From: Escherichia coli
Lineage (GTDB): Bacteria; Pseudomonadota; Gammaproteobacteria; Enterobacterales; Enterobacteriaceae
Assembly (NCBI RefSeq): GCF_011045215.1
Contig: NZ_CP049201.1
Length of the DNA stretch: 64,000 bases
Direction: 5' to 3' (one strand)
Shown here: positions 18,990 through 22,071 of the stretch, piece by piece
Layout of the letters: each line of letters opens with the position of its first letter
How positions within the stretch are numbered: the stretch's first letter is position 1
Notes under the pieces: model-generated
Seen by the model: the letters and a program-made list of their open reading frames with translations, nothing else
What the model was told of the DNA's origin: nothing
The model's database searches: none
Translations under genes and position numbers: made by a program

Positions 18990-19940
18990 ATGCGTGTGTT
19001 ACTGGCACCGATGGAGGGTGTGCTTGATTCTCTGGTGCGTGAATTGCTGACCGAAGTTAACGACTACGATCTGTGCATCACCGAGTTCGTCCGCGTGGTG
19101 GATCAACTGCTGCCGGTAAAAGTCTTTCATCGCATTTGCCCTGAGTTACAAAACGCCAGCCGGACACCATCCGGTACGCTGGTGCGCGTTCAGTTGTTAG
19201 GTCAGTTCCCACAATGGCTGGCAGAGAACGCCGCCCGTGCGGTGGAGTTAGGTTCCTGGGGCGTGGGTCTCAATTGCGGCTGCCCGTCGAAAACGGTCAA
19301 CGGTAGCGGTGGTGGGGCGACGTTACTCAAAGATCCTGAACTCATCTACCAGGGGGCAAAAGCGATGCGTGAAGCTGTACCGGCGCATTTGCCCGTCAGC
19401 GTGAAAGTGCGTCTGGGCTGGGACAGCGGTGAGAAGAAATTTGAAATCGCCGATGCGGTTCAACAGGCTGGCGCTACGGAGCTGGTGGTGCATGGGCGGA
19501 CAAAAGAGCAGGGTTACCGCGCGGAGCATATTGACTGGCAGGCGATTGGCGAGATTCGCCAGCAGCTGAATATTCCGGTGATTGCCAACGGTGAAATCTG
19601 GGACTGGCAGAGTGCGCAACAATGCATGGCGATCAGCGGCTGCGACGCAGTGATGATTGGTCGCGGGGCGCTCAATATTCCCAACCTGAGCCGGGTAGTA
19701 AAATATAACGAACCGCGAATGCCGTGGCCGGAGGTGGTTGCTTTGCTGCAAAAATATACCCGTCTGGAAAAGCAGGGCGATACCGGGTTATATCACGTAG
19801 CGCGGATTAAACAGTGGTTGAGTTATTTGCGTAAAGAATACGATGAAGCAACGGAATTATTTCAGCATGTTCGGGTGTTGAATAATTCCCCTGATATTGC
19901 AAGGGCTATTCAGGCAATTGATATCGATAAGCTGCGATAA
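18990..19940 (+). CDS. dusC: tRNA-dihydrouridine(16) synthase
   Basis: Dus-family TIM-barrel flavoenzyme; internal start [11 protein letters not shown]... fits better than the track start at 18924. Confidence 0.85.
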
Positions 19941-20029
19941 TAGTGGAATCGCAGTTTATCAGAGACAATGAATCGCTTATTCAGCTTCATCATCTTGTTG
20001 CGCTCCTTTCATGAGCTAAGCCACATATT

Positions 20030-20240
20030 GCCACTGGCGCAAGGAGCGCGCAGGGGGAGGACAATCGCCTCCTCCCCCTGCACCCCCGGGCTCTGGCGAA
20101 CAAAATCGCCGCTGCGCGGTACCTTCAGCTTATCCCCTTCGGCTACCGGGTCGGGCGCGAGGAAACGTCCTTGTAAGACGCGCCCTCAGCCCACATCCAT
20201 GTGGGCTGCCCCGGCCTTCGGGGAACGCTTCAGCAATTTT
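20030..20240. repeat. GC-rich palindrome-dense intergenic element of unknown class
   Basis: Several perfect hairpins in about 210 bp: cagggggagga-caatcgcc-tcctccccctg, ggcgcg...cgcgcc, gcccaca-tcca-tgtgggc, cccg-gcctt-cggg. Confidence 0.4.
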
Positions 20241-20327
20241 GACGCCACCAACACCGGAGCTGTTTGCAAATCAAGTACACAAAATATCTAGTTCCTGACC
20301 TGACAACTTATATGTCATATCTGATTT

Positions 20328-20411
20328 TTAAAATATCATCTTAAATACGCCAGTCACCACCAGTAGCCCAATCAGGAAAATAATCAATACAGCCCAGAGT
20401 ATAATTTTCAT
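20328..20411 (-). CDS. yohP: 27-aa small hydrophobic membrane protein
   Basis: Reverse-strand ORF MKIILWAVLIIFLIGLLVVTGVFKMIF with SD aaggaa 7 nt upstream; matches my recollection of E. coli YohP. Below the ORF-track size cutoff. Confidence 0.55.
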   Translation of the reverse strand: MKIILWAVLIIFLIGLLVVTGVFKMIF

Positions 20412-20634
20412 TGGCGTTCCTTTATTTGTGAGTGCTGAATAAGTATAGGAAAAAACGAAGCCCTTTGCCGTTATCCATAAACGATTAAGATAAATCGGAA
20501 GATATCATTCGCTTAGTGTATATTTTTCTGGATATGTCGTTTTATTGCTACTGATGTATTGCCACGCGAAACTAAAAAATATATCGCAACACACGGTAAT
20601 CTCCGCGCACCTTTTCTTACCTGATTATTCCCCC

Positions 20635-22071
20635 ATGAATCGTGATTCCTTTTATCCAGCCATCGCCTGTTTTCCGCTGTTACTGATGCTGACCGGGTGT
20701 GCGCCTATGCATGAAACCCGCCAGGCGTTAAGCCAGCAAACGCCCGCTGCACAAGTTGATACCGCATTACCCACGGCGCTGAAAAATGGTTGGCCAGACA
20801 GCCAATGGTGGCTGGAGTATCACGATAATCAGCTCACTTCCTTAATTAACAATGCACTACAGAACGCACCGGATATGAAGGTGGCTGAACAGCGCATTCA
20901 GCTAGCTGAAGCCCAGGCGAAGGCAGTTGCTACTCAGGATGGTCCGCAGATCGACTTTTCTGCGGATATGGAGCGGCAAAAAATGTCGGCAGAAGGGCTA
21001 ATGGGGCCGTTTGCTCTGAACGATCCGGCCGCAGGTACGACCGGTCCGTGGTACACCAACGGAACTTTTGGCTTAACGGCGGGCTGGCATCTCGATATCT
21101 GGGGAAAGAATCGGGCGGAGGTTACTGCCCGCCTGGGTACGGTTAAAGCACGGGCGGCGGAACGCGAGCAAACCCGCCAATTGCTGGCTGGCAGCGTAGC
21201 CCGCCTGTACTGGGAGTGGCAAACCCAGGCGGCGTTAAACACGGTCTTGCGGCAAATCGAAAAAGAGCAGAACACCATTATCGCGACCGATCGCCAGCTA
21301 TATCAGAACGGGATTACTTCTTCAGTTGAAGGTGTGGAAACCGATATTAATGCCAGCAAAACCCGGCAGCAGCTCAACGATGTCGCGGGGAAAATGAAAA
21401 TTATTGAGGCACGGTTAAGCGCACTTACAAATCACCAGACAAAGTCATTGAAGCTTAAACCGGTCGCGTTGCCGAAAGTGGCAAGCCAGCTTCCTGATGA
21501 ACTGGGGTACTCCTTACTGGCCCGGCGGGCAGATTTGCAGGCGGCGCACTGGTACGTTGAGTCATCGCTAAGCACCATTGATGCGGCAAAAGCGGCATTT
21601 TATCCTGACATCAACCTGATGGCCTTTCTGCAACAGGATGCGTTGCACTTAAGCGATCTGTTCCGTCATTCCGCGCAGCAAATGGGTGTTACGGCAGGCC
21701 TGACGCTACCCATTTTCGATAGTGGTCGTCTTAACGCCAATCTCGATATCGCAAAAGCCGAAAGCAACTTGTCTATCGCCAGCTACAACAAAGCGGTGGT
21801 TGAAGCGGTAAATGACGTGGCGCGGGCGGCCAGCCAGGTTCAGACACTGGCGGAGAAAAACCAGCATCAGGCGCAAATTGAGCACGATGCCTTGCGTGTG
21901 GTAGGTCTTGCGCAGGCGCGCTTTAACGCGGGCATCATTGCTGGTTCCCGCGTCAGCGAAGCCAGAATCCCCGCGCTGCGTGAGCGGGCCAATGGCCTGT
22001 TATTGCAAGGGCAGTGGCTGGATGCCTCCATTCAACTCACTGGTGCGTTGGGCGGGGGTTACAAACGCTGA
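20635..22071 (+). CDS. mdtQ: Outer-membrane efflux factor lipoprotein (NodT/OprM family)
   Basis: Internal start MNRDSF... gives 478 aa with lipobox LLLMLTGC; OMF-like coiled-coil/barrel composition. Confidence 0.75.
   Translation: MNRDSFYPAIACFPLLLMLTGCAPMHETRQALSQQTPAAQVDTALPTALKNGWPDSQWWLEYHDNQLTSLINNALQNAPDMKVAEQRIQLAEAQAKAVATQDGPQIDFSADMERQKMSAEGLMGPFALNDPAAGTTGPWYTNGTFGLTAGWHLDIWGKNRAEVTARLGTVKARAAEREQTRQLLAGSVARLYWEWQTQAALNTVLRQIEKEQNTIIATDRQLYQNGITSSVEGVETDINASKTRQQLNDVAGKMKIIEARLSALTNHQTKSLKLKPVALPKVASQLPDELGYSLLARRADLQAAHWYVESSLSTIDAAKAAFYPDINLMAFLQQDALHLSDLFRHSAQQMGVTAGLTLPIFDSGRLNANLDIAKAESNLSIASYNKAVVEAVNDVARAASQVQTLAEKNQHQAQIEHDALRVVGLAQARFNAGIIAGSRVSEARIPALRERANGLLLQGQWLDASIQLTGALGGGYKR

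Follow-up and report, generated by a model that had tools for sequence, protein, structure and literature searches.

The G+C-rich, hairpin-dense segment that lies between dusC and yohP in the Escherichia coli DNA analysed here (a stretch of 64,000 nucleotides, hereafter the window) is almost certainly a copy of the TRIP1 repeat, at the site designated TRIP1c. The element has already been described and catalogued and is no new kind of element; new here are its homologues in other genera, the covariation of a 13-helix fold, the strand bias of that fold, its TwoAYGGAY architecture and the invariant GGA loops of two of its hairpins. The best overall explanation, to which a probability of roughly 0.6 is given, is that TRIP1c is a selfish structured repeat whose RNA, made by read-through, would carry a dual CsrA-type site.

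The TRIP1c copy and its locus

Positions 20030–20240 have a G+C content of 65.9%, against 50.7% for the whole window and 34–40% for the immediate flanks, and they contain several perfect stem-loops and fold beyond shuffled sequences, much as the preliminary description had it (a hairpin-dense element of about 65% G+C between dusC and yohP). The interval that it delimited, 20030–20240, is indeed the core of the element and is too narrow on both sides: similarity to other copies spans approximately 19986–20289, a length of about 300 bp with a G+C content of 59%. These limits were set by megablast similarity to copies at other loci, in which query positions 47–350 correspond to window positions 19986–20289. 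The element is placed between two convergent genes, starting 45 nt past the stop codon of dusC (whose ORF ends at 19940) and lying, at its other end, 39 nt past that of yohP (20328–20411). An imperfect 13-bp hairpin at 19926–19960 spans the dusC stop (codons near 19925–19940). On the far side of yohP, mdtQ (yohG; 20545–22071, plus strand) is intact here and in strain E308 and is annotated as a pseudogene in K-12 MG1655.

A megablast search with window positions 19940–20330 matched 5425 of the 5426 complete E. coli genomes, at one to eight places per genome (median 3); the 64-kb window itself contains a single copy. Matches away from this locus, such as that between aqpZ and lysO in K-12, are 88–93% identical over 19986–20289. 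The window copy shares 90.5% identity with K-12 TRIP1a (304 bp aligned) and 89.0% with K-12 TRIP1c (272 bp aligned). In the account of Li et al. (2024, Genes 15:236, PMC10888264), which credits the first report of the repeats to Rudd 1999, TRIP1a is located at aqpZ–ybjE (lysO); TRIP1b, which has an internal 125-bp deletion, at putP–efeU; TRIP1c 43–44 bp downstream of yohI (dusC), between yohI and yohP/mdtQ (yohG); TRIP1d at alx–sstT; and TRIP1e at copA–ybaP. The copies are there given a G+C content of 62–65% and no assigned function, and are described as substrates for chromosomal inversions (PMC10888264).

The properties that mark a TRIP1 repeat (high identity along 80% or more of the K-12 reference copies, site, G+C content, a stable fold and presence in multiple copies) were all found in the window copy, which shares with TRIP1c its locus, its position after the dusC stop, its size class, its G+C content and its multi-copy state, and differs from the K-12 copy in being inverted relative to it. 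The suggestion that the segment could be a miniature repeat element is thereby borne out, the repeat being dispersed, multi-copy and previously named; the copy-number and K-12 comparisons that had been proposed were run, and show the element to be repeated within genomes and present in K-12, inverted. It is neither single-copy nor covered by a well-supported gene. A literature search found TRIP1 repeats in no paper besides that of Li et al. 2024, which treats them as an E. coli DNA repeat; their spread across genera and the reading in terms of TwoAYGGAY and GGA loops are absent there.

Two further kinds of copy were set aside. The 88-kb E. coli plasmid pMTY11352_3 (NZ_CP134387.1, 72272–78440) carries a captured chromosomal block, ybjX-ybjD-aqpZ-TRIP1a-lysO-hcp-hcr, and the copy examined on it is part of that captured aqpZ–lysO segment. 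Copies on viral contigs, which have a tRNA gene next to them, probably represent flanking host sequence.

The flanks at dusC–yohP are colinear with those of K-12, and the element between them matches on the opposite strand, at 89% identity. The orientation seen in the window occurs in 1998 of the 5426 complete E. coli genomes, including O157:H7, NU14 and APEC IMT5155, and the inverted, K-12-type orientation in approximately 3400, which are most of the others and include K-12, W3110, HS and O104:H4. Genomes of the K-12 type were recognised by a match through the two flanks only, spanning 981–983 bp, and make up nearly all remaining rows in an evenly spaced sample. In the sampled rows orientation seems to track strain background, with O157:H7, NU14 and APEC IMT5155 on one side and K-12, HS and O104:H4 on the other. 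An empty dusC–yohP site was found in none of 60 sampled E. coli genomes. The idea of a strain-specific insertion is thus contradicted, as the site is occupied in every sampled genome, K-12 included, and only the orientation differs; the two orientations are two old alleles. The last codons of dusC also vary by allele (ending IDIDKLR before the stop here and IDIEKL in K-12), so that the allele boundary extends into the gene.

Both orientations are found at four orthologous loci: dusC–yohP, aqpZ–lysO, alx–sstT and a locus flanked by genes for proteins of 617 and 527 residues. At the junctions examined, the micro-flanks of opposite-orientation alleles are not homologous, one of them having a REP sequence there, and a clean inversion in place was rejected on that ground. 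The pattern suggests that copies turn over or re-insert at intergenic hot spots, and does not look like a clean flip. At alx–sstT, the site of TRIP1d, K-12 has BoxC-like repeats instead of the element, which leaves no clean empty site from which exact boundaries could be read.

These BoxC-like repeats (CCCTCACCC...CCCTCTCCC...GGGAGAGGG; locus L072, positions ~1290–1440, for K-12 alx–sstT) also occur directly 3' of many copies of the second subfamily described below, in Enterobacter (for example at loci L021, L022, L035 and L060), and many of the subfamily-II copies so followed are preceded by CCCCAGTAATTTTT...AGCGAT. TRIP-like and BoxC-like repeats thus form composite blocks in shared intergenic hot spots.

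Homologues and the conserved 13-helix fold

One genome per species was scanned for sequences fitting a pattern derived from both loops of the element. The scan returned 65 loci, comprising 51 true homologues (73–97% identity) and 14 chance matches, close to the number of chance matches estimated beforehand. The homologues come from Escherichia species, Citrobacter, Enterobacter, Pseudescherichia, Pseudocitrobacter, Leclercia, Silvania, Kluyvera and Raoultella; some Enterobacter genomes contain several copies, and TRIP1-like homologues are multi-copy across the Enterobacteriaceae. Their alignment (A2) resolves two subfamilies, and an HMM search of the fetched loci revealed a third, more divergent one, whose members often adjoin a copy in the opposite orientation. 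Four such subfamily-III copies, all on the plus strand of their loci (L018, 2176–2432; L045, 4061–4316; L068, 5632–5884; L023, 6940–7202), each have a copy of subfamily I or II on the opposite strand, approximately 10–50 nt away.

An identical 79-nt insertion occupies the same position of the element in three genera, Pseudescherichia, Escherichia (E. whittamii) and Enterobacter (L013, L032 and L062), corresponding to A2 columns 204–279, and a related piece is present in L023. The insertion consists of four small hairpins, one of which has an additional GGA loop (GCCCCAGGGAUGGGGC), and may represent either a mini-element nested in the repeat or a separate subfamily that is propagating. In two Enterobacter genomes, a C4 antisense RNA of the phage P1/P7 type scores above the Rfam threshold within a few hundred bases of TRIP-like copies (L010, 863–949, plus strand; L059, 3656–3739, plus strand).

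The predicted RNA fold of window positions 19985–20270 has an energy of −145 kcal/mol on the minus strand (z = −5.8) and −126.7 kcal/mol on the plus strand (z = −4.9), and none of 200 shuffled sequences equalled the energy of the element on either strand. The fold is laid out as a long closing stem, P1, of approximately 25 pairs, which surrounds two hairpins with GGA loops (A and B) and is followed by two further helices (Table 1). Compensatory changes occur in P1; in the hairpin of the 3' domain, where GGGGGAGGA/TCCTCCCCC in some copies answers to GGGGGCGGC/GCCGCCCCC in others; in hairpin A (helix 6), with double changes at 6 of 8 pairs; and in the terminal helix (helix 13), with double changes at 6 of 7 pairs, which reads GCGCUCC/GGAGCGC in E. 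coli and CGUUCAC/GUGAACG in subfamily II. A motif resembling CA(C/A)AT(A/G)TTC lies some 20–25 nt past the terminal helix (window ~19975–19985; A2 columns 430–445), at a fixed distance in all subfamilies; it could mark where the element truly ends on its 3' side, or else a site of targeting or cleavage.

Table 1 Coordinates of the TRIP1c element and the parts of its predicted fold in the window
Feature	Position	Strand	Basis
Whole TRIP1c repeat element	19986–20289	− (strand with the conserved fold)	Similarity to copies at other loci; alignment
5' arm of long closing stem P1	20226–20259	−	Inverted repeat (imperfect long-range pair 20101–20116/20226–20241); minus-strand MFE; helices 1–3 with compensatory changes
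3' arm of closing stem P1	20084–20116	−	Inverted repeat; minus-strand MFE; covariation
Hairpin A, 9–10-bp stem, loop CAUGGAUG (ACAUGGAUGU)	20187–20208	−	Perfect 10-bp inverted repeat (20187–20196/20199–20208); helix 6 covariation
Hairpin B, GGGCGCG/CGCGCCC stem around UUACAAGGACGU	20153–20185	−	Sequence (7-bp stem, GGGCGCG at 20153–20159 with CGCGCCC at 20179–20185, by eye); MFE; ACANGGAYGT match
12-bp G+C-rich hairpin of the 3' domain	20050–20081	−	Perfect 12-bp inverted repeat (20050–20061/20070–20081); helices 11–12
Terminal helix GCGCUCCUU...AAGGAGCGC, enclosing a 32-nt loop	20000–20049	−	Perfect 9-bp inverted repeat (20000–20008/20041–20049); helix 13

Analysis of A2 with RNAalifold, followed by a count of pairs, gave 59 pairs in 13 helices. 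Paired cells make up 97.4% of the total, compared with 39–45% in controls in which the partners were slid by one to three columns; 30 pairs have changed on both sides, compared with 9–15 in the slid controls; and the covariation score is 0.282, compared with 0.04–0.06. None of 500 shuffles reached the observed pairing or covariation values. The two strands are not equivalent: G-U combinations outnumber A-C combinations by 50 to 20, favouring the minus strand of the window, for which the alifold energy is −65.6 as against −50.6 for the plus strand. The G-U excess and the energy asymmetry together indicate a folded single strand, which may be RNA or single-stranded DNA; G-U accounts for only 1.8% of paired cells, a low value for a typical structured RNA, the pairing being nearly all Watson–Crick. 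Selection probably acts on a strand-specific folded nucleic acid, and the conserved feature of the TRIP1 family is the 13-helix fold and not a protein.

A 107-residue ORF (19968–20291) spans the element, but no frame crosses the core without interruption in more than 3 of the 21 distinct copies of subfamily I, and the variable columns, each counted once, fall on the three codon positions as 47/35/37, with no three-base periodicity. A pairwise count of 102/47/48 was rejected as an artefact, the same window-specific changes having been counted repeatedly. Neither this ORF nor a 27-residue antisense ORF matches NCBIfam. The latter (19910–19993, minus strand, MMKLNKRF...), which is antisense to the 3' end of dusC, is probably spurious: the AAAGGAG and AUG at 19993–20008 on the minus strand resemble a ribosome-binding site and start for it, but the AAGGAG is an arm of a helix, which in subfamily II has covaried to GUGAACG, and the same AUG is followed in K-12 by only three codons (AUG-AGA-GAC-UGA). 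That the segment lacks coding capacity, as had been proposed from its sequence, is therefore upheld; with frames closed in most subfamily-I copies, a 125-bp internal deletion in TRIP1b and stem substitutions that are compensatory, a protein-coding gene in this or any other frame can for practical purposes be dismissed, even though the ORF covers the element.

The interval 19850–20500 contains no sigma-70-like promoter and no intrinsic terminator, apart from one weak promoter-like site (20312–20339) outside the element, and no hairpin in the element is followed by a run of T. That the element might act as an sRNA, as had been suggested, is possible in view of its strongly conserved, strand-biased fold, though it has no promoter or terminator of its own.

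The element had been said not to resemble the REP consensus seen elsewhere in the window, and this is correct: the consensus matches at five positions (12481, 12597, 16627, 22949 and 29799), none of them in the element, and the Rfam naRNA4 (CssrE) model, whose hits are taken as REP/BIME, matches nearby loci and not the element. With REP/BIME, ERIC and BoxC sequences the family shares a palindromic, non-coding character, a place beside gene 3' ends and variability between strains, and it often adjoins them. It differs from REP in having no REP match, in being much longer, in forming a multi-helix junction rather than one hairpin and in its low copy number.

The GGA loops, their likeness to CsrA sites, and TwoAYGGAY

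As the first scan had selected on the loops, metagenomes were rescanned with a loop-free search, which gave 120 hits in 45 distinct variants, 43 of them true and 2 chance matches. In all 43 distinct true variants GGA is present in both hairpins, and six full-length copies found by HMM likewise keep GGA in both loops. Any of the four bases (U, G, C or A) may precede GGA, and the stems vary with compensation; the pair closing the loop of hairpin B covaries, from ACA..UGU to GCA..UGC. The loops have the contexts CA-N-GGA-UG and ACA-N-GGA-Y-GU. The pattern ACANGGAYGT occurs exactly twice in the 64-kb window, both times inside the element, with a spacing of 28 nt.

These contexts resemble the binding site of CsrA, for which the SELEX consensus is RUACARGGAUGU and a 6-nt loop closed by AC/GU is preferred. 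A CsrA dimer bridges sites 10–63 nt apart, so the 28-nt spacing of the two loops could be spanned by one dimer. SELEX work also suggests that long, stable stems may hinder CsrA binding, and the hairpin stems of the element are long and stable. In comparison with CsrB, CsrC and RNAs of the RsmZ type, the element shares GGA in hairpin loops, the ACA..GGA..GU context and a spacing that a dimer can bridge, and differs in having only two good sites, long stable stems, no dedicated promoter in the scanned interval and dispersed, mobile-like copies. CsrB and CsrC have about 9–22 CsrA sites.

In the supplementary gene table of the K-12 CsrA CLIP analysis, dusC and ybjE are marked 'No' in four columns read as CLIP-related, which lends no support to a CsrA role and counts against one; repeat-derived reads may have been lost or discarded in that analysis. 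The literature on CsrA CLIP and on yohP leaves the element unmentioned. The element RNA could equally well bind CsrA in vitro or fail to do so; that such binding is its physiological role is doubtful.

No Rfam family covers the element at curated thresholds; a sub-threshold match to TwoAYGGAY is the one that recurs, matches to miRNA and snoRNA families (E > 1) being noise. Against the Rfam family TwoAYGGAY (RF01731), whose gathering threshold is 43 bits, the window copy scores 25.4 bits, and the three other full-length E. coli copies tested (K-12 TRIP1a, K-12 TRIP1c and TRIP1d) score 30.6–33.1 bits; in all four the match extends over the full model and falls on one and the same strand. A score of 49.2 bits, which exceeds the threshold, is reached by the subfamily-III copies of L018 and L045, in Pseudocitrobacter and Kluyvera.

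TwoAYGGAY was described by Weinberg et al. 2010 as two hairpins with AYGGAY loops and a P1 stem of up to 24 bp, distributed in Clostridia, gamma-proteobacteria and the human gut. The seed copies from Psychromonas are multi-copy and have, in ACAUGGAUGU and UACAGGGACGUA, loops near-identical to those of the window copy. Loop A of the element, AUGGAU, fits AYGGAY; loop B, which is AAGGAC here and AGGGAU in K-12, has a purine at the Y position, and the TwoAYGGAY seed sequences also include CAGGGAU and ACAGGGAC loops. The two elements share adjacent A-N-GGA-Y hairpins inside a long P1, multi-copy occurrence in genomes and a gamma-proteobacterial distribution; the window copy is much more G+C-rich and has approximately 110 nt of extra 3' structure, comprising two helices. 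By architecture it is a relative or variant of TwoAYGGAY, and by the Rfam criterion it is not a member. The paper on RMfam proposed that TwoAYGGAY binds CsrA, and Rfam clan CL00106 holds both TwoAYGGAY and CsrB.

Explanations for the family

Under the preferred explanation, the family would survive as a non-autonomous and selfish repeat, kept in the form of a folded strand and turning over, in either orientation, at a small number of intergenic hot spots beside gene 3' ends; it would also serve as a substrate for homologous recombination. As the element has no evident promoter, its transcription would come by read-through. The gene directly upstream of the folded strand is yohP in this strain and dusC in K-12, and read-through would come from these; yohP is induced in stationary phase and starvation. 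In the resulting RNA, two GGA hairpins of the CsrA type would be exposed at a spacing of about 28 nt, and the RNA may bind or titrate CsrA or alter the fate of the mRNA that carries it.

A serious rival takes TRIP1 to be purely a mobile or recombining element at the level of DNA, its hairpins being sites for a transposase or recombinase on folded single-stranded DNA, with the conserved loops CATCCATG and ACRTCCYTGTAA on the other strand acting in the manner of REP/RAYT or IS200/IS605 ends, and the likeness to CsrA sites coincidental. It has a real, if minority, chance of being correct. Where the copies belong to a mobile element, their covariation can arise from selection for mobility and need not point to a host function, and much of what has been described suits such an element: the multiple copies, whose presence or absence varies by locus and species, the two orientations at four orthologous loci with differing micro-flanks, the clustering with BoxC-like repeats, with REP and with a second, oppositely oriented TRIP-like copy, the same 79-nt insertion in three genera, the almost exclusively Watson–Crick pairs and the absence of a promoter. 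The orientation of copies relative to the upstream gene is mixed (29 co-oriented, 19 not), which fits a selfish element acting at the DNA level as well as it fits RNA. The hallmarks of a MITE are nonetheless missing, as no inverted repeat joins the ends of the element and no target-site duplication was found at the junctions examined, and no transposase-like neighbour recurs among the flanking ORFs. That G-U outnumbers A-C, and that the energies are asymmetric, favours one folded strand, though the same would be seen with folded single-stranded DNA. The strict invariance of GGA beside a free base N, within an ACA...GU frame and in both loops, is in contrast what characterises a CsrA/Rsm site.

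Alternatively, the element could be a passive structure at gene 3' ends, comparable to REP/BIME, that blocks 3' exonucleases or insulates the convergent dusC and yohP and has no specific partner. Its position shortly past both stop codons and its very stable folding on both strands agree with this, as does the finding that, at 33 of 46 loci, a convergent gene has its 3' end 21–140 nt away from one end of the element. Such a role is nevertheless quite improbable, as it leaves the invariant GGA loops, the conserved multi-helix junction and the strand asymmetry unexplained, and no hairpin is followed by a T-run.

A programmed switch, in which a site-specific invertase flips the element between its convergent neighbours, is very improbable. 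It would account for both orientations at dusC–yohP and at three other loci, but orientation seems to follow strain background in the sampled rows; moreover, the 89% identity of the alleles, their differing micro-flanks and the absence of boundary inverted repeats indicate an old dimorphism or re-insertion, not active switching.

TRIP1 has been without a proposed function for 25 years, and annotation pipelines leave the region blank; its link to TwoAYGGAY and to invariant GGA loops provides a testable hypothesis. In its furthest form, which is speculative and unlikely to hold as a whole, TRIP1 and TwoAYGGAY would be mobile cassettes with a high-affinity dual CsrA site, whose landings in 3' UTRs would tie mRNAs to the Csr system or add small sponges, the orientation of each copy picking the transcript that carries it. 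If this is true, the site would be carried in this strain, as in O157:H7 and B2-type strains, by yohP, which encodes a small membrane protein and is induced by starvation, and in K-12 by dusC. The two orientation alleles at this convergent gene pair constitute a natural experiment on the expression of yohP and dusC.
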